A DNA stretch of 23,462 nucleotides, taken from a virus (Duplodnaviria; Heunggongvirae; Uroviricota; Caudoviricetes). The position numbers and the translations under genes were made by a program. The stretch is taken from positions 1 through 23,462 of the IMG/VR virus record IMGVR_UViG_2698536369_000027; one strand, written 5' to 3'. Below the pieces are notes generated by a model. That model had not been told where the DNA came from, did not search any database, and saw only the letters and a list, made by a program, of their open reading frames with translations. Of the stretch, positions 1 to 9,600 are shown piece by piece (position 1 is the first letter of the stretch; every line of letters begins with the position of its first letter).

Positions 1-387
1 TCACTTCAGCGGGTAGTCATCAAACTCACCAGAACGCGCATCGTTGATGATGTAGGTGATAACGCCAAAAATTGCATCAGGGCTGGTTCCATCATCGTGC
101 ACCGGTATCTCTTCGCGTCTTCCTGTCTGCAAATCTTTCAGGTGAGGCTTTGGTGATTTTCGATATCGCTTAATCCTCAGCTCACCTTCCATTCTGCAAA
201 CAAGTAATGAGCCGTCGCATGGAGATAGAGATGCATCCACAACCAGAAGTGCACCGTTGAGAATGCCTTCCCGGTAATGCGTTGCACCCGCTCTCATGAA
301 GTACGTTGCCGCTGGTCTCGATATGATGCGCTTGTCGAGCGAAATGCGCTCTTCTACGTAGTCTTGTGCTGGACTCGGGAATCCCAT
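1..387 (-). CDS. UmuD'-like S24 peptidase-family protein (pre-processed UmuD'/HumD-like accessory subunit of translesion synthesis)
   Basis: 128-aa ORF; ATG at 385-387 preceded by a GGAGG RBS; N-terminus MGFPSPAQDYVEERISLD aligns with the start of processed E. coli UmuD' (GFPSPAADYVEQRIDL, recalled from memory); stop codon abuts window position 1-3. Confidence 0.8.
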   Translation of the reverse strand: MGFPSPAQDYVEERISLDKRIISRPAATYFMRAGATHYREGILNGALLVVDASLSPCDGSLLVCRMEGELRIKRYRKSPKPHLKDLQTGRREEIPVHDDGTSPDAIFGVITYIINDARSGEFDDYPLK

Positions 388-404
388 AACTCACCTCCGA
401 TAAT

Positions 405-424
405 TACTGTATATTAATACAGTA
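405..424 (-). promoter_or_regulatory. LexA (SOS) box upstream of the UmuD'-like gene
   Basis: TACTGTATATTAATACAGTA: perfect CTGT-N8-ACAG with AT-rich spacer, near-perfect palindrome, about 18 nt upstream of the ATG and next to the RBS. Confidence 0.75.
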
Positions 425-462
425 TTACCGATCGGCGGTGTCGATCAATAGCGTTTGTGGTG

Positions 463-2679
463 CTACACTTCCCACCATCCTTGTGCTCCTGACATCTTGA
501 TAAATGTTTTTGACCATCCATTTCCTGTTTTTGTTTCCGTGCCAACACTTAGAGGCACTATTCTATTTTCGGATGCTGTACTGCTAAATATAAACGTAAC
601 ACTAGAGGATAAAGATACTCCGCGTATCACCACTCTGTCTCCGGGCTTACCTCCTGTGATTGTGTCAATGCTTTTAGTTGCGGACGATATCCATACATTG
701 CCATGCGAGAATGGAAGTACTGATCCAGTCAATGACTCAAGGGGTTTTGATGGGCATGGCTCACCATAGATTTGTGGGTCGTTTACACCTGCTGGAATAA
801 GCAGTGTGGAGTTATACTTATTACCTGATCCATAAAGAGTTGGCTCAGTTGCTCCGCTCCATGTAATAGGGTAATGAGCAACAGATTTCATAGTAAAATC
901 GTTATCACGCAACCTTAAAATGCACGCCTGAGCATTGATATACGTTAAGGCACCGCTGTTTGCCATCGCGTCAAACCAGTTGCTTCTGAATGTGGCGTCA
1001 GCGTTGTTGAAAACAACAACCGGGTCGAGTTGAGATGCTGCTGATGAACCCCAGAGATGCGCCTTGAAGGTGCAGTTTTGTACCTTCATTCCTTTGACAC
1101 TTCCTATGCGCATGAACTGGAAGCAGTTTTTTAGAATAACGCCATCAACAATAATTGCCCCATCAGAGAAGAATGAAGGGTTTATTGCTGGTTGGGCATG
1201 TAACCCACGAAATGCCGAGTCGATGTTACCGCCTAAAATATGAACCTTGCCCATATTACCGAAAATTCGGTAAGCAGTACTCAAGTCAACTTTAGTTGAC
1301 TGCACCTCGCAGTTGATAAACATAAACGTGTGATCGAAGTTTGACCATGAAGGTAGCGGGTCGCCAGTGGAGCCGTCTTTGTCGGTGGTAATAATCTGGA
1401 CGCTGGAGTTAGCGTATACAGTGTCATCGCTGAACTTAATCTTCATGTTTTCGAAGATAACGTTCTGCGAATAACGCGTAATTCCACGGTCTCCAGAGTA
1501 GCAATAACAAGCTGACTTCGTGTTGTAGGCTGTGATGTTGAGAAAATACGCGTTGTAGCATGATGCCACTCGCCACCATCCATCACAGGTAGACACGTTT
1601 TCTACATTAAACCGCTCGACATGAATATTGTAAGGATGCAAACCATTTGTCATGGTTGAGTTTGTTGCTGGGTTTTCCGGTGCCAGACCATACTCAAAGT
1701 TACATCCAAATTTCCAAGGCCCTCCACTTATCAGGCAGTCATGCAGTCTAATGCCATCTAATTCCCCCATTCCGCAAACAACAAACCCATTGTTTAAACC
1801 TTTCCCTGTAACATTATAAATTCTGTCAATCTCAACGTCACTGGTCATTGCACTTCCAAGATATTGACCACCGACCCAAATCATTACAGTTTGAGGCGCT
1901 GATGGATTGCTGGCGGTTGCATCTGCCCTTGTTTCTGCAACGTCATATACAAAGTTGGATATGCGGACTTTTTTTGAATTGTAAACGACGAAAGTATGGT
2001 TCGCGCGACCACCTGATGTAGGAATAAACCCTTGGACGTTATCCATTATCTTCGCGCCATTGAAGTTCAGCGTGATATTACTGACTCCAATGCATTGCAC
2101 GGTGCCGGTAAGGAGATACGTACTGGATGGATTGCCAATAAACTCCACACCCACGCCGCTGTAGGTGGTGATGGCGGTGTTTAGCGCTGCAGAGCTATCA
2201 AGAACACCCGACTTATCTACGCCCGGCAGATCGTCGATAAACATGAATACACGATCAAGGTATTGCGTGAGATTAACGCCGCCCTTGGTACCAATCAGGT
2301 TTGTTCCTGGAGGGTCAAATGAAGCTAATTGCTGACTGAACTGATCAGGATCATACTTCAGCACATTAGGGAAATAGAATTGCCGCGCCCCATACGCATC
2401 ATAAACAGCCATAGAATGGCCTTGCTCAGTTACGAACTTGGTAATCTGTCCATTATATACAGGGTAACCAGCAGCGTTAATGATGATTGGTTGCGAAACA
2501 GGAACGTGAGAGCCGTCTTCGTTTTCCACATAAACCTGAATCTGGTTTTCAGGATTTACCGGGTCAGTATCAATTTTTCCGATATAAATTTTGCCATTGG
2601 CTACGGCTTTAAAAGAACGCGCCATAGTGAAGAGTTGCGAAGGCATCGATACGATCACATTGGCTGTAATGTCTGTCAT
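463..2679 (-). CDS. Tailspike protein with P22 gp9-like N-terminal head-binding domain and a divergent receptor-binding domain
   Basis: 738-aa ORF; first ~110 aa ([13 protein letters not shown]...[33 protein letters not shown]...VLKYDPDQ) match the P22 tailspike N-terminus from memory; remainder is different and longer than P22 (667 aa). Confidence 0.9.
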
Positions 2680-2737
2680 TTAATTTGCTCCAGATGCAAG
2701 GAATCGCCGCAGCATGGCTACGGTGAATTTTGGGCAT

Positions 2738-2761
2738 AAAAAAAACCCAGCCGAAGCTGGG
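2738..2761 (-). terminator. Rho-independent terminator between the KilA-N gene and the tailspike gene
   Basis: Minus-strand sense CCCAGC-TTCG-GCTGGG followed by TTTTTTTT: 6-bp GC-rich stem, UUCG tetraloop, 8-U tail. Confidence 0.75.
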
Positions 2762-2780
2762 TCGTTGCGTTGGTTATCTG

Positions 2781-3671
2781 TCAGTAGTTATGTACTGAAG
2801 GAGGTAATTCTTTATTCTTAAGTCTCATCCATGCGGAACGATTCGTTGGTCCGTCTGGCTCATTAATATCAACATCTAGTGTGTGATTGATTAAAACGTC
2901 TCTCGCTATATCGATAATACGGGAGAACTCATAACCGCAGTCATGACATCTGCCGGAATAGTTCGATTGAATTTGTTTCAGCGCCGGATACAATTCGCGG
3001 AATAATGCCTGTGAGCGGTTGGCATAATCCCATAACCATACAAGGCTGTTTGCTTCTTTTGCAGAAAGCTCGTTGGTTTTCTTCTCTTGTTTGCCGATAA
3101 ATTCACCTTCAAGCACTACCCTGTGGATGTACTCTACGGCCAGCGGGATTTGTTCAATTGAAAGTTCATCAATGCTGTCAATACCAAAACGCTGATGAAC
3201 CATATTGTATGCATCGTCATAGCGAAGTCCTTTCTTTCCTACCAGCATGTTTACTGCATCGCGTAGCGGTGTGCGTTCAGCTACTGAAGTTTTACCGCCA
3301 ATACTCTTCCTCTCTTGTGTGGCAGTAACCATTGCGTCATATGCACGGATAACCTTCAGCGCAAATGCTGCGCTAATCCACATGGCGTAGGAGTAAACAA
3401 GCTCCTTGCACACGTAGGTTCCACCATATCGACCTTTCTTAGAAAGGACGGGATTCTTATTCTGCATATCCGCAGAATTAAAAATTTCATTAATCAATTC
3501 AATAGTTTCATTTCTACGCATGAAGAAAGCTGGCTGATGTTTTTCCTCCTTTCCAGACGCTACATGAAGGTCATTAAGCGAGTAACGACCCTCTGAATCC
3601 ATATGAATCTTGACGTCAGAAATGATGATGCTATTAGTGCAATTTACAGTTGACTTTGCTAAGCTTGACAT
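2781..3671 (-). CDS. KilA-N domain antirepressor-like protein (in the ant position of an immI region)
   Basis: ORF to stop at 2781; N-terminal region has KilA-N-like motifs (GRYSLNDL ... [29 protein letters not shown]); preferred start is ATG 3669-3671 with upstream GAGG; alternative GTG at 3735-3737 overlaps the upstream ORF stop. Confidence 0.65.
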
Positions 3672-3733
3672 ATCAATAATACCTCGTAAGTTTTGTTGAT
3701 ACCGAAGCCCTGACTGTTCCCGCAGTTGGGGCT

Positions 3734-3955
3734 TCACTGTTTTTGTAAGTCACTGTAGCTATAAAGCCACTGACCACTCATTTTTGATTTGATTGACTCT
3801 ACTGAGTCACGGCAAGGAATGATTCCGCCTGACATCATTCTGATCTCCGTAAATTCACCACTCCTTATCGATTCAATGCCATCAATGTTAACTAAAGATT
3901 TACCTCTACCAAGTGCATTCTCATAGCCAATCTCATCAACCTCAATAAACCTCAT
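3734..3955 (-). CDS. Hypothetical 73-aa protein, translationally coupled to arc
   Basis: ATG 3953-3955 overlaps the arc stop codon (ATGA-type overlap); its own stop overlaps the GTG of the downstream ORF; no recognisable domain. Confidence 0.5.
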
Positions 3956-4110
3956 GCCGTTATCCCCTCTCTCTTCAGGCTGTCCAACACTCGCTTGTAA
4001 ATCTCAGAGTTAACAGATCGCCCGTTCTCTTCAGCTACCTTGCGCACCAAATCCAATACTTCTTTAGGCCACCGCAAATTGAACTGCGGCATTTTGCTCA
4101 TTCCTTTCAT
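3952..4110 (-). CDS. arc: Arc transcriptional repressor (ribbon-helix-helix)
   Basis: Translation [52 protein letters not shown] is near-identical to P22 Arc (53 aa, from memory); ATG 4108-4110 preceded by GAGGTGA RBS; the longer ORF-track start at 4173 would read through its own operator. Confidence 0.9.
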   Translation of the reverse strand: MKGMSKMPQFNLRWPKEVLDLVRKVAEENGRSVNSEIYKRVLDSLKREGITA

Positions 4111-4123
4111 ATTCACCTCACAA

Positions 4124-4146
4124 TATGGGTCCACCGTGAACCTATT
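4124..4146 (-). promoter_or_regulatory. Mnt operator-like palindrome
   Basis: Minus-sense AGGTTCACGGTGGACCC, one mismatch from the P22 Mnt operator core GGTCCACGGTGGACC as I recall it; lies between the Pant -10 and the arc start. Confidence 0.6.
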
Positions 4147-4149
4147 GAG

Positions 4150-4178
4150 AATATAGTAGAGTGCTTCTATCATGTCAA
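4150..4178 (-). promoter_or_regulatory. Pant-like promoter with embedded Arc operator
   Basis: Minus-sense TTGACA - 17 nt - TATATT; the spacer plus flanks read ATGATAGAAGCACTCTACTAT, which matches the 21-bp P22 Arc operator from memory. Confidence 0.75.
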
Positions 4179-4200
4179 TACACTAACTTGGGGTGATGGC

Positions 4201-4455
4201 ATGGCTAGAGACGATCCGCACTTTAACTTCCGTATGCCTTTGGAAGTAAGAGAAAAATTGAAATTAAGAGCAGAGGCTAACGGAAGGTCAATGAACTCTG
4301 AGTTATTACAAATCGTTCAGGATGCTCTCTCAAAGCCATCATCAATTGTAGGCTATCGAGACGAAGCTGAGCGAGTCGCGGATGAGCAATCTGACGTTGT
4401 TAAGAAGATGGTCTTTGAAACGCTGAAAAATATTTATAGCAAAAGTAAGTTATAG
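4201..4455 (+). CDS. mnt: Mnt repressor (maintenance of lysogeny; represses Pant)
   Basis: 84-aa translation MARDDPHFNFRMPLEVREKLKLRAEANGRSMNSELLQIVQDALSKP... is near-identical to P22 Mnt from memory; divergent from arc. Confidence 0.9.
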   Translation: MARDDPHFNFRMPLEVREKLKLRAEANGRSMNSELLQIVQDALSKPSSIVGYRDEAERVADEQSDVVKKMVFETLKNIYSKSKL

Positions 4456-4504
4456 GCTTATGACGTACAGTTAACCATATCGATATTGGCTCGCGTGATG
4501 ACAA

Positions 4505-5224
4505 ATGAAAAAAAGCAATGGACTCACATTAAAACTTGACGGAACCACCCCTGGCCAGCTGTCAATGGCTAAGTTGGTCAAGTATATGTCTGCTCTCGTA
4601 GATCTATACGGTTCTGCAGATTCTGTTCACTTCGACTGTGTAAGTGAAGGATCGGCTGACTTAAATGCATGGGTCGATAATGATATTTGTTATAACGCTG
4701 TCATAGCAAGGGCCTCTCTCTCAGCCAAAGAGAAATCACCCGCGTATCAAAAAATTGTTAATTTACTGGAACATGATGGTTTTTCAGCGAAACTACTCGG
4801 ACGAAACCACTCAACCATTATCGCATTCCCGCGAGTAAAAAAGGAGCCAATCCCTTTACTCATAACAAAAACATCAGAAGTTCAAGGAAGGCTATACAGT
4901 GTTGGCGGAAAAGACAACTCAATACCTGTGCGTATTGAGGGAGCCAACGGTGAAACATTCAAGTGCGAGGCAACCCCTGATTTGGCGGCAGCTCTTGGGT
5001 CCCATCTATTCAAATATATTAGGGTTAAAGGAGATGGGTGCTGGGAAAAAAAGAACAACAAATGGGAGCTAAAGAAACTAAAAATAACTTCATTTGTATT
5101 GCTCAAAAAATCATCACTCAAGGATGCTATTAATGCTATCAAGCAAGTTCCTGGAGATCAGTGGTCCGAGGAACGCGATGTTGATTCAATCCTTAGGACT
5201 CTGAGGAAGATAAATTGCGAGTAA
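4505..5224 (+). CDS. Hypothetical 239-aa protein, first gene of the cargo cassette and partner of the PIN nuclease
   Basis: ATG at 4505 is the first start codon after an in-frame stop; no Walker A, HEPN or other motif seen; AT-rich with K-rich C-terminal third; stop overlaps the downstream PIN gene by 10 nt. Confidence 0.6.
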   Translation: MKKSNGLTLKLDGTTPGQLSMAKLVKYMSALVDLYGSADSVHFDCVSEGSADLNAWVDNDICYNAVIARASLSAKEKSPAYQKIVNLLEHDGFSAKLLGRNHSTIIAFPRVKKEPIPLLITKTSEVQGRLYSVGGKDNSIPVRIEGANGETFKCEATPDLAAALGSHLFKYIRVKGDGCWEKKNNKWELKKLKITSFVLLKKSSLKDAINAIKQVPGDQWSEERDVDSILRTLRKINCE

Positions 5225-5763
5225 TTTTAGATACCAATATTCTGGTATACCTACTATCAGATATAGAACACGATTATAGATTATCTGACCCTATACTTGG
5301 TTCTGAGATTCCAGATGCCAAAAGAAGAGCAGAAGCTCTTGTTGATCGAATAGATAACAAGAACGGGACAATCATCGTTCCAACTCCTGTATTGGCGGAG
5401 TTTTTAGTTGGAATCCATAAAGATTACCAACAAGAAAAACTGAATGTTATCAAATCGTTATCGTGCTTCGAAACTGTATCATTTGATGAGTTGGCTGCTA
5501 TTGAATGCGCATCGATACCAACATTAAAAGAATTAAGGAAAATTAGCACAGAAGGTACAGCAAACAAAATTAAGTTTGACAGACAAATAATAGCAATTGC
5601 AAGAGCAATTAATGCTGACGAGGTATGGACTCATGATAAGGGAGTGTTTGAGCGTTGCAAAAGTCTCAATATTCCTGTGTTCACATTATCATCAATAGAA
5701 CCAATTCCGGTTCAAAGTCTCATGGAGTTCTTACACGATTCAGACGATCAGAGATTACACTAA
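5215..5763 (+). CDS. PIN-domain nuclease (VapC-like fold, 182 aa)
   Basis: TTG start at 5215 with GAGGAAGA RBS 5-7 nt upstream; N-terminus RVILDTNILV is a classic PIN beta1 motif; candidate acidic residues D6, E62 (LAEFLVG), D122 (KFDRQIIAIARA), D141 (WTHDKG). Confidence 0.7.
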   Translation: MRVILDTNILVYLLSDIEHDYRLSDPILGSEIPDAKRRAEALVDRIDNKNGTIIVPTPVLAEFLVGIHKDYQQEKLNVIKSLSCFETVSFDELAAIECASIPTLKELRKISTEGTANKIKFDRQIIAIARAINADEVWTHDKGVFERCKSLNIPVFTLSSIEPIPVQSLMEFLHDSDDQRLH

Positions 5764-5890
5764 AATATAATTTTTATGCATCCGTGATAATTACATCCGT
5801 CACTGATACATAAAGCTATAGCCAAAAGTGGACAAACCTTTATCTCACTCCAAACCATCTGGTATCCTGCTAAAAACTAAGGAGGTTGGT

Positions 5891-6280
5891 GTGAAGCAAT
5901 TTCTTGCTGCTATGTTCTTATTCATATCTTTTGGGGCTACAGCAGAGTGCTGGGTCGTTGGAGATATGCGCGGAATAAGCTATTCAGAACGAAATAATTT
6001 CCATCCGGAAGAAGATGGTTTTAGTGGAACATTCATCATTAAGACAAGCGGTGAAGATGCCAGCATCACATATTCTGGGACAGATGCGGGTGGCATGGCT
6101 TACAAAGCATTGTCTAAAAACTCCATCATAGGAATCGGCGCGAATGGCGAAACTCAACGCGTTATCGACTCATGGGTAATACATCCTACTGGAACAGTTT
6201 TAATGTCAAAAACCATTTCCGGTTATGGAAATATGGATTCAACCAAAGCTTTTGTTGGAAAAGTAAAAAGAAAATGTTAG
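5891..6280 (+). CDS. Small exported protein with N-terminal Sec-type signal peptide (~129 aa)
   Basis: GTG at 5891 preceded by AGGAGG with 5-nt spacing; N-terminus VKQFLAAMFLFISFGATAE is a hydrophobic signal peptide with a likely A-x-A-type cleavage site; the ORF-track start at 5828 is GTG without an RBS. Confidence 0.6.
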   Translation: MKQFLAAMFLFISFGATAECWVVGDMRGISYSERNNFHPEEDGFSGTFIIKTSGEDASITYSGTDAGGMAYKALSKNSIIGIGANGETQRVIDSWVIHPTGTVLMSKTISGYGNMDSTKAFVGKVKRKC

Positions 6281-6304
6281 CGATTGAATCCAATTTCCCA
6301 TACG

Positions 6305-8215
6305 TTACTGCTGTGTTGCCTCAGTAACAAACAGCGGCCTGACGGCATTTGCAGCGTTACTTAACGCTCTTTCATAGGCTGGCGTTCCAGCTTTAGTGTT
6401 TGCCAGACGCAAGAGCGCATTCCTTGCTGCTTTGGACTCGTACAAGCGCATGATTGCACCGAAACCAGCTTCAAGCGCCAGTGTTGCCCCAAGAGTCGCA
6501 GTTGCGCCAATCGTTCTAATCCTGTTAGCTTGCGATTGTCCTGTCTGTGTTACTACATTTGCGGCGTCCGACCTTGCTGTTTGCTGTAGAACTTCATGAA
6601 GAGCATCAAGCTCTTTCATGTGTCTCCCACTGAATATCGTGTTATAGATCTGACCGTCAGATTGCGACTTCAACTTATTTAACTCGGTAAGAAATTTTGT
6701 TGGCGAGTCTCCTGCTTTTTCTGCAATCTTGCTAATATAAGCAGCACGCATAGCGTTCTTTCCATCTTCACTAAGAGCAGGCCATATCCTCTTAATATCT
6801 GATGGTTTTCTGCTGAATACAACACTGTTTATTAGCTCTGGAGTAAACTCTTTTTTAGCTTTGTTGAGATTATTCGCAATCCTTTTATTGAGAACTTTAT
6901 TGAAAACGTTGGAGTAGTCAGAGTTTGCTTTGACGTATCTGGCGGCCTCTCCAGCCCCCAAATACCGCGCTGCGTTATTCCTCAAATCTGCCCCCATTGC
7001 CCTCTCCACGGCATCAGTTGCGGCTTTCGCGCTATTAGGAAAAACCATGGCATCTCCCTGAATACTTTCCCTCAAGGCTGACCGCAACTCTCTCAATAGA
7101 CCAAAATCTATATCTGGTTTAGCAAGTTCTTCTCGCAAATCGGATAACCCGCGAATCAAATCCTTATTTGCCACTTTCCCAAGCCTGTTAGCTCTGGTAA
7201 GTACGTTGTCGATAACCTTAATAGATTTTGATGTGTCAACAGGTGTGTCTCCCATTTTGGTTGTAATGTCTTCAATAACGCTTCCGGCCGAATCCTTCCT
7301 TGACTTCAGAGAACCATACAGATCGTCAACAACAACTGATGGGCTATATTCACCATATTTCTCAAGCTGTTTTTTAACTAGCTGACTTCTTTTTGCATAC
7401 TGCTCCGCTCGCTTTGAGCCTGTCCCGAGCAAAGCCCCCTCGGCATCCTGAGTAAGGCCGCGAGTGAAAGCATTTTTCGGCGGGATAACATCAGATGTCA
7501 TTGGTGTCACGCCCATCGATTCTGATGTGGCAATTTTCTTCGCCACTTCTGGTGCAATATCACCTTTAAAGGCAGTTATTCCACGCTCAAGCCCTTTTGC
7601 AACAGTATTAACAGCACCACCTGTTAGCATGCCAACACCTATATCTGTTGCCAGTTTTCCCGCATCATTTTTCTCACTGTTTGCGGCGAGCGATCCGACT
7701 GCGTTTTCTGCCAGAAGACGGGCTGCGCCTTGAGTAATTCGACCAGCAAGTGTTGGCGCCTGAGTTGAAGCACCGCCAACGCCAACAGTAGCCAGGTAAG
7801 GCAATGCCTCCGCAAACACCCTACCTTCTGTCGTTTGTGGAGTCAGAGCACCTTGCTGAAGTCCAAACGCCTGCTCTAATCCCTGAGTTGTTACTCGTGG
7901 CGCTGGTTGATATGTTCCATCACCAATACCGAGTTTACCGCCAGCCCATGCTGCCGCGCTTGTTACAGCATCGGCAACTGATGCCGGTATGTTTGCCACG
8001 TTTACGCCAGCCTGCACCAGTCCGCGACCAGTCTCTTTTACTGCCTCGCCAAGGTCAGACATAAATCCATCTTGCTGTTCTAAAGGCTGCTCTTGATTCT
8101 GAGTTGGTGGATTACTGGAAGACAGCATCCTAGCAATGCGGCGCGCGCCATCAGTATCACCTGCAGCATCAGCATTCCTTAACGCCGTCATCAATTGTTC
8201 ACGACTATAGGCCAT
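6305..8215 (-). CDS. 16: Ejection (injection) protein, P22 gp16-like
   Basis: 636-aa ORF in the conserved P22 order 7-20-16; start overlaps the gp20 stop; Ala/Gly-rich as in P22 E-proteins. Confidence 0.8.
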   Translation of the reverse strand: MAYSREQLMTALRNADAAGDTDGARRIARMLSSSNPPTQNQEQPLEQQDGFMSDLGEAVKETGRGLVQAGVNVANIPASVADAVTSAAAWAGGKLGIGDGTYQPAPRVTTQGLEQAFGLQQGALTPQTTEGRVFAEALPYLATVGVGGASTQAPTLAGRITQGAARLLAENAVGSLAANSEKNDAGKLATDIGVGMLTGGAVNTVAKGLERGITAFKGDIAPEVAKKIATSESMGVTPMTSDVIPPKNAFTRGLTQDAEGALLGTGSKRAEQYAKRSQLVKKQLEKYGEYSPSVVVDDLYGSLKSRKDSAGSVIEDITTKMGDTPVDTSKSIKVIDNVLTRANRLGKVANKDLIRGLSDLREELAKPDIDFGLLRELRSALRESIQGDAMVFPNSAKAATDAVERAMGADLRNNAARYLGAGEAARYVKANSDYSNVFNKVLNKRIANNLNKAKKEFTPELINSVVFSRKPSDIKRIWPALSEDGKNAMRAAYISKIAEKAGDSPTKFLTELNKLKSQSDGQIYNTIFSGRHMKELDALHEVLQQTARSDAANVVTQTGQSQANRIRTIGATATLGATLALEAGFGAIMRLYESKAARNALLRLANTKAGTPAYERALSNAANAVRPLFVTEATQQ

Positions 8216-9600
8216 TACTGCCCTCCGAGATATTTGCTAATTAATTCGTCATCGGACAATTGCTGTTGAGGTTGGCTATCGCCATAACTTGAGGAAAGAA
8301 AACGTTTTGCCGCAGAGTTCAATGATTCACCCTTCTTAACATCCATCCCCATGATGTTTCGGTTGCGATCAGATTGTCCTGGGCTGCCATTTGCACTCAT
8401 CCACTCTGACCTAAACTCGTTGAACTTCGCGTTATTACTTTCCATTTTTGCCATACCCCTTAACCATCGAGCCATGACCATTGGATTATCCGTTTCGCTT
8501 GGAATGCCTTTCCTTGCAAACTCAATATCCTTATCTGATGCAGGGCCGGGAGGGAGAAGCTTGGTTGCCTGCGCATTGGCTAGTTGGTTGAATCTAATCC
8601 GCATATCTCGGAGGTAGTTATCTTGCCCCGTAAGCTTAGTGAACATATTTTCAGCGTTACCGAACAAACCAGGAGTTGGCTTCTCCTTCTCCAGCGTGTC
8701 AGCAAGCGTTGTCATTGAATCGGCAGCATTACGACTAGCTGCCGCATCACCTGCTGATTTTTCTATAGCCTTTTCCATGTTCACGGATAGTTTTGGCGCA
8801 GCATTAATAAGTTCATCGGCCTTCTTTTGTGCCTGTTGTACTTCAAAACCGCATTTCTGCTTATCAAGTGCCAGTCTTTCTGCTGCAAGTCCGTGCCCAG
8901 TCATTGCTGACTGATAGGAAAGGTTTTGCCCTCTCGCCTGAAGTGCTTCACCAGCCTGATTGCTGCGGATTGTCTCTGCCAGCCTGCCTCGGTCAATTTC
9001 ACGACCAGCCATCTTATCCTGAACAGCAAACGCCTTTTCTGGTCCAAGCGCACCGAGAGACATAGTAGTCAGCATGTGTGATAGCTGCTCTGGATTCTGG
9101 ATACCTGTCTGAATCATCCAGTCAGCATTAGCACCAACGCGATTTAACCTGTCCTTGTTGTCAGTAATGAATTTACTGTAGGCTTCCGGTCCCTGAGAAA
9201 GAGCGACGTTAGCCCTCATGGCTAAATCGCCCATATCGTTGCGTTGCTGATCATTAAGACCTGAAAACGCCTGTTGTGCCTGTGCAACAAACGCTGGATT
9301 TTCCTGGGCAAACTTAAATAGTCCCGATGGATCACCAGAAGCCCATGCATCAGCGTGAACCTTATTGAACGCACTAATCGCTTTCTGTTGCTGTTCCTGC
9401 TTATAAATATCAGCAACTCCAGCCAGACCACGTAACGCGGTCAGACCAACGTTATTTGCACCTGAGCGAGCCAGTTCATTGTTTTCGCGGATCAGACCAA
9501 GCGTTGCGTTAATGTCGCTTGCCTTTGGCGCATTCTCATTTTGCGTACCGATGCCAGCCAGAAAACCACCAGAATTAATACCCTGTTGCCACGTAGCCAT
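8215..9600 (-). CDS. 20: Ejection protein, P22 gp20-like
   Basis: 461-aa ORF (P22 gp20 is about 471 aa), position between gp7 and gp16 homologues. Confidence 0.8.

Follow-up and report, generated by a model that had tools for sequence, protein, structure and literature searches.

The stretch of DNA analysed here (the window, 23,462 nucleotides in full) covers the late half of a P22-like Escherichia coli prophage. Its last gene belongs to the established phage HumD family, of which it is an ordinary representative. The reading that we favor, with a probability of roughly 0.85, is that the gene encodes a functional, phage-borne homologue of UmuD′ that is truncated in advance, lies as an att-proximal moron in a P22-like prophage integrated in sbcB and feeds the host Pol V pathway. 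In its truncated start, its LexA box and its missing umuC partner, the gene matches what is documented for HumD of phage P1 and is, to that extent, already known.

Assignment to the family follows from several comparisons. The NCBIfam equivalog NF051876 (“HumD family translesion DNA polymerase”) recognizes the window protein with 212.5 bits (cut-off 120) over residues 1-127, which correspond to profile positions 1-128 of 129. The UmuD model NF007621 yields 85.2 bits, below its cut-off of 110, the LexA model yields 28.8 bits against a cut-off of 110.95, and Pfam reports Peptidase_S24 alone. When phage genomes were searched with tblastn, the protein showed 85% identity to gp26 of N15 (annotated as UmuD), 76% to the “UmuD-like protein” of HK140 and 71% to P1 HumD, the precedent that the earlier note had named and that this identity and the family score bear out. 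The best matches of the sequence in PDB are UmuD′ 1UMU (E 5.6e-18), 1I4V and the UmuD-RecA entry 8GMT. An AlphaFold model computed from a family alignment of 49 sequences has core residues 31-90 at pLDDT 85-90 and low confidence for the first 25 and the last 10 residues, and the top Foldseek matches of this model in PDB are UmuD′ 1UMU and 1AY9 and UmuD 8GMT. The core of the earlier reading, a UmuD′-like protein encoded behind a LexA box, is upheld by the family match and by UmuD′ as the best match in both sequence and structure, and the underlying observation is confirmed from the ORF, the box and the position next to the tailspike gene. What does not survive is the apparent novelty of the gene: the family is curated, hundreds of 90%-identity clusters of homologues of 128-129 aa are named “HumD family translesion DNA polymerase” at NCBI, and many public E. 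coli assemblies, listed in 76 blocks of the collection, already contain exactly this protein sequence.

The lone Pfam hit, together with database records that label some family members “LexA family transcriptional regulator”, could speak for a generic S24 domain, that is, the C-terminal part of a LexA- or CI-type repressor unrelated to UmuD′. This reading is refuted and retains virtually no probability: the 128-aa protein is an S24 domain alone and lacks the N-terminal DNA-binding domain that defines repressors of the LexA and lambda CI type, the HumD model scores 212 bits versus 29 for LexA, LexA chains in PDB match more weakly than UmuD′ (about E 1e-4 to 1e-5), and the GFPSPAxDYVE segment that follows the cleavage site is common to the window protein and UmuD proteins. 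The alignment that the earlier note had proposed for detecting such a generic domain thus leaves the relationship to UmuD′ standing. The protein has every testable defining feature of the HumD family and does not have those of self-cleaving UmuD (an arm with the cleavage site, the Ser-Lys dyad and an operon with umuC; here Thr36 stands for Ser60, Lys73 is kept, and arm and umuC are missing) or of LexA-type repressors.

The gene and its translation signal are located as follows.

1-387, minus strand: CDS of the humD family, 128 aa, with an ATG start and the stop codon at 1-3; intact.
391-398, minus strand: Shine-Dalgarno-like sequence GGAGGTGA, 3 nt from the ATG and including an in-frame TGA.

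The product begins with M-GFPSPAQDYVEE, its opening residues being also given as MGFPSPAQDYVEERISLDKRIISRPAATYFMRAGATHYREG and MGFPSPAQDYVEERISLD. In the alignment with UmuD, Met1 corresponds to Cys24 and Gly2 to Gly25, and directly 5′ of the ATG the frame reads GTT and, one codon further out, TGA. Because this in-frame stop lies two codons upstream, a 24-residue N-terminal arm of the UmuD type is ruled out, and the claim that the gene starts at the UmuD cleavage point is borne out. The start is a property of the family: M-G-F opens 118 of 121 family sequences (the window protein and 120 homologue clusters).

The nucleophile position requires a more differentiated statement. The motif GATHY occupies residues 34-38, and HMMER and MAFFT agree that Thr36 corresponds to Ser60 of UmuD and Lys73 to Lys97, with a gap of one residue just ahead of the motif. 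The earlier note had described the catalytic dyad as missing. This is correct in that the position of Ser60 holds no serine; the residue there is Thr36 rather than a gap or a histidine, and Lys73 is retained, so that half of the dyad is missing and not the whole. Among the 121 family sequences, the Ser60 position is occupied by Thr in 96, Ser in 21, Ala in three and Pro in one, P1 HumD (ADSHH), the member on which experiments exist, belonging to the Ser-bearing minority; the following residue is His in 114, and the equivalent of Lys97 is present in 118. Judged from the sequences, the exchange of Ser for Thr at Thr36 is a conservative change, and the varying nucleophile residue would fit a protein that has nothing to cleave.

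Another family trait is an acidic C-terminal tail of ~10 residues that is missing from UmuD and nearly invariant in the HumD family (consensus GEFDDCPVM). The window protein and its HK140 homologue carry the variant GEFDDYPLK (window positions 1-30, the last 10 residues), which has low pLDDT and is predicted to be disordered. The consensus tail resembles the C-terminal tip of SSB (DFDDDIPF). There is a slim chance that the family has been retooled beyond an armless UmuD′, combining the Thr and the near-invariant His with the retained Lys and with an acidic tail that perhaps mimics the SSB C-terminus. If the tail does so, stalled forks could be places where HumD draws in SSB-client proteins or competes for them, which, if true, would be a function undescribed for UmuD′.

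Upstream of the gene, two regulatory features overlap.

405-424: LexA (SOS) box TACTGTATATTAATACAGTA, 18 of 20 positions identical to TACTG(TA)5CAGTA, 17 nt from the humD ATG.
419-448, minus strand: candidate weak sigma-70 promoter from a relaxed scan, with putative elements TTGATC (448-443) and TACTGT (424-419) separated by 18 nt.

The box has perfect inverted arms of 8 nt and a perfect CTGT-N8-ACAG core, and no other site in the 23.4-kb window comes within three mismatches of the consensus; in 100 dinucleotide-preserving shuffles, no such match arose at all. The bare core is weak evidence by itself, because 29 of the 100 shuffles contain one. The operator of the umuDC operon of E. coli K-12, TACTGTATATAAAAACAGTA, likewise departs from the consensus at two positions, and its distance from the ATG is 20 nt, compared with 17 nt for the window gene, and the annotated LexA site of P1, 19 nt 5′ of humD, aligns with both the window box and that of N15. 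The arms, the core, the consensus match and the spacing agree with the LexA box placed just 5′ of the gene in the earlier note. Given the match of the box to the consensus and its conservation (see below), control of humD by LexA is strongly suggested at the sequence level. The putative −10 hexamer, TACTGT, is at the same time the left arm of the box; the candidate promoter matches at 7 of 12 positions, and the same pair of hexamers is found 5′ of E. coli umuDC at a spacing of 17 nt (L013:406-434), versus 18 nt here. Strict scans of positions 1-700 detected neither a sigma-70 promoter at this site nor a terminator in the interval from the tailspike gene to humD. Since no terminator separates the two genes, LexA-independent expression by read-through from the late operon is possible, and this may add a second expression route for humD.

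Conservation of these features was assessed in a survey of 32 further loci from species-representative genomes together with phage loci, comprising 17 HumD-type and 19 UmuD-type loci. All 17 HumD-type loci encode a protein starting with MGFPSP and have a LexA box, located 14-20 nt from the ATG in 11 loci and 278-305 nt upstream in six. In these six, the box precedes an ORF of ~79 aa that is translationally coupled to humD through an ATGA or TAATG overlap, an arrangement resembling a two-gene variant of an SOS operon (L011:2219-2501, which is HK140, and loci L015, L016, L018, L023 and L024); for the 79-aa ORF of HK140, Pfam gave no significant match. In tblastn searches with UmuC, no umuC homologue was found within about 4 kb in any of the 17 HumD-type loci, and an adjacent umuC was found in all 19 UmuD-type loci, 18 of which encode an N-terminal arm ending in Cys/Ala/Gly-Gly. 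An uncultured alphaproteobacterial MAG (L037:1263-2854) has an ORF that starts in UmuD′-like fashion with MSFGSPACDYVE, has a stop three codons upstream and is directly followed on its 3′ side by a umuC homologue; this may be a pre-truncated UmuD′ still accompanied by its polymerase partner, or else a start-site artefact.

Besides the tailspike gene and humD, the window carries an immI region with mnt, arc and ant and the genes for the Q antiterminator, terminase, portal, scaffold, coat, gp4, gp10, needle, gp7, gp20 and gp16. Two features describe this end of the prophage.

463-2679, minus strand: P22-type tailspike gene, 738 aa, with an N-terminal Head_binding domain; co-directional with humD and ending 75 nt before its ATG.
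1-471, minus strand: mobile humD module, consisting of the gene, the box and about 47 nt upstream, 99.8-100% identical in other prophages.

In the other prophages, the upstream neighbor of the 471-bp module is either a tailspike gene directly or a divergent O-antigen conversion cluster of the gtrA type. The varying neighbors of the module fit the description of the gene as a moron, as had been suggested. At the immI position that sieA occupies in P22, bounded by the gp16 homologue and mnt/arc, the window has an inserted group of ORFs on the plus strand (4505-5763 and 5828-6280): a Pfam-negative ORF of 239 aa overlaps an ORF of 182 aa with a PIN domain, and an ORF of 150 aa follows. The group may serve as a cassette for superinfection exclusion or defence; PADLOC returned nothing for HumD and three neighboring accessory ORFs.

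The left flank of the window was read from contig L006 (Logan ERR137786), which is 100% identical to window positions 1-8387. To the left of the humD stop codon, this contig has 86 nt shared with the free phage HK140 and then a 30-bp att core (L006:8474-8503; also L012:4776-4805) that HK140 attP shares with codons 7-17 of sbcB of E. coli K-12. Beyond the core, identity to K-12 is 98.8% across the region between sbcB and dacD and on into dacD; sbmC, yeeA and yeeX come next. The prophage therefore sits in the 5′ end of sbcB, the gene for exonuclease I, at the site used by integrases of the HK140/2851 type. Because the phage arm and the att core lie beyond the stop codon, humD consists wholly of phage sequence, and no further gene separates it from attR. 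An origin of the C-terminal residues from host DNA across the att core was considered and rejected: the core begins 87 nt past the stop, and the protein of free HK140 ends in YPLK as well. A different downstream context was observed at L009:8466-16344, where a gene for the same HumD protein is followed by phenylacetate (paa) genes, starting inside paaE, instead of dacD, which would reflect another site of integration or rearrangement, or else a join made in assembly.

The same flank decides the question of a polymerase partner. The earlier note had placed any umuC-like gene beyond position 1, and there is none: the L006 flank holds the att arm, the 5′ end of sbcB across the prophage/host junction, then dacD, sbmC and yeeA. 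Pfam analysis of 18 among the window ORFs of at least 150 aa detected no Y-family polymerase domain, only P22-type late, ejection and immI genes. As no Y-family polymerase lies beyond position 1, the partner of HumD would have to be the UmuC of the host.

P1 HumD, known from McLenigan et al. (1999, J Bacteriol 181:7005), shows its 71% identity to the window protein over the full length, with 129 versus 128 aa, an MGFPSPA start and the acidic GEFDD-P tail, and its gene has a LexA box at 19 nt (17 nt in the window) and no linked umuC. It differs in the Ser of ADSHH, where the window protein has the Thr of GATHY, in its C-terminus (CPVI versus YPLK), in a LexA site that is shared with the divergent gene lxr, whereas the upstream neighbor in the window is the co-directional tailspike gene, and in its carrier, a phage-plasmid (NC_005856) rather than an integrated P22-like prophage. 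N15 gp26 and HK140 gp28, the closer relatives by identity (85% and 76%), both have GATHY. The N15 gene has its LexA box 14 nt upstream; unlike the window gene, it is carried by a linear plasmid-prophage and lies after a tail-fibre gene and before sopBA. A literature search combining N15 gp26 and UmuD found nothing useful. HK140 gp28 is likewise the last gene before attP, has an identical …GEFDDYPLK end and is followed by the same arm sequence as in the window, but its LexA box lies 282 nt upstream, before the coupled 79-aa ORF. With UmuD′ of E. coli, the window protein shares 35% identity over the whole UmuD′ part, the fold, the GFPSPAxDYVE segment and the retained Lys97, and the LexA operator of umuDC equals the window box in quality and resembles it in its distance from the ATG. 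In contrast to UmuD, the window protein lacks the 24-residue arm and the cleavage site, has Thr for Ser60, is not encoded in an operon with umuC and has about 10 extra C-terminal residues, in addition to its score of 85 bits against the UmuD cut-off of 110.

Nei-Gojobori dN/dS between the window gene and its homologues in N15, HK140 and five enterobacterial homologues, taken where dS was unsaturated, is 0.05-0.14; it therefore indicates purifying selection and argues for a functional protein. The distribution of the module in complete E. coli genomes is patchy. Matches were found in 333 of 5426 genomes, and only 37 of these cover at least 80% of the module, from which we conclude that humD is dispensable and often lost. 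In most matching genomes, unannotated 3′ remnants of humD adjoin dacD where other P22-like prophages end (for example, L046:3001-3238). C-terminal fragments alone are also found in Sf101, mEp234, HK544 and several Stx phages, and the 3′ fragments in prophages and Stx phages cover aa 45-128, 73-128 or 99-128. That the attP arm adjoins the 3′ end of humD may explain why such remnants persist, and in HK140 the annotated attP overlaps the last 30 nt of the gene. This overlap and the many phages and prophages that retain 3′ fragments only would suit a history in which humD is a neutral, decaying passenger, kept solely through the 3′ end that adjoins or overlaps the attP arm. We consider that history very improbable for the window gene, given an intact ORF with a good ribosome binding site, low dN/dS across diverged homologues, a start, Lys and C-terminal tail that are nearly invariant in the 120 clusters and a LexA box kept in all 17 loci.

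Under the favored reading of humD as a functional UmuD′ homologue, LexA would occupy the box at 405-424, with which the probable −10 element overlaps, and keep the gene off in the lysogen. Upon DNA damage, LexA cleavage driven by RecA* would derepress humD, and HumD would dimerize and join the host-encoded UmuC, together with RecA/ATP, in a Pol V-like translesion polymerase. HumD would need no RecA-mediated self-cleavage, because its start corresponds to the residue after the Cys24/Gly25 cut of UmuD, and the complex could arise sooner than the slow maturation of host UmuD to UmuD′ allows. By homology and by what the literature says on P1 HumD, we infer that the window HumD gene would be bound by LexA and that its product would dimerize, bind UmuC and RecA and affect mutagenesis. 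Such properties are known for P1 HumD only, which reportedly complements UmuD′ function, dimerizes and binds UmuC and RecA filaments. It is also reported to be poorly expressed, with good complementation from a high-copy plasmid only. This counts against the favored reading, as do the lack of a strong sigma-70 promoter, the possible read-through from the late operon and the frequent loss of the gene.

An alternative role is that of a modulator: through RecA filaments, mixed UmuD/UmuD′ dimers or both, HumD would chiefly damp recombination, SOS signalling or Pol V, the phage would benefit during induction, and mutagenesis would be a side effect. UmuD′2C inhibits RecA-mediated recombination, and this role would suit a humD without a cognate umuC, a UmuD′-like sequence with UmuD on the RecA filament (8GMT) among its best PDB matches and a conserved extra acidic tail that is missing from UmuD and hints at an additional partner. 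We nevertheless regard it as unlikely, as the sequence holds nothing that separates a modulator from an activator and as P1 HumD complements UmuD′ in mutagenesis according to the literature.

The main value of the analysis lies in the correct annotation of the gene. Its mildly new aspects are the P22-like carrier with the attP-sbcB location, the predominance of Thr at the nucleophile position and the acidic C-terminal tail. A P22-like, sbcB-integrating prophage joins P1-like phage-plasmids, N15-like linear prophages and lambdoid phages of the HK140 type as carriers of humD, which travels next to attP as a compact 471-bp module of LexA box and gene. For stress-induced mutagenesis, the favored reading means that some E. 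coli lysogens would carry a pre-activated accessory subunit of Pol V that bypasses the checkpoint of RecA-mediated cleavage.
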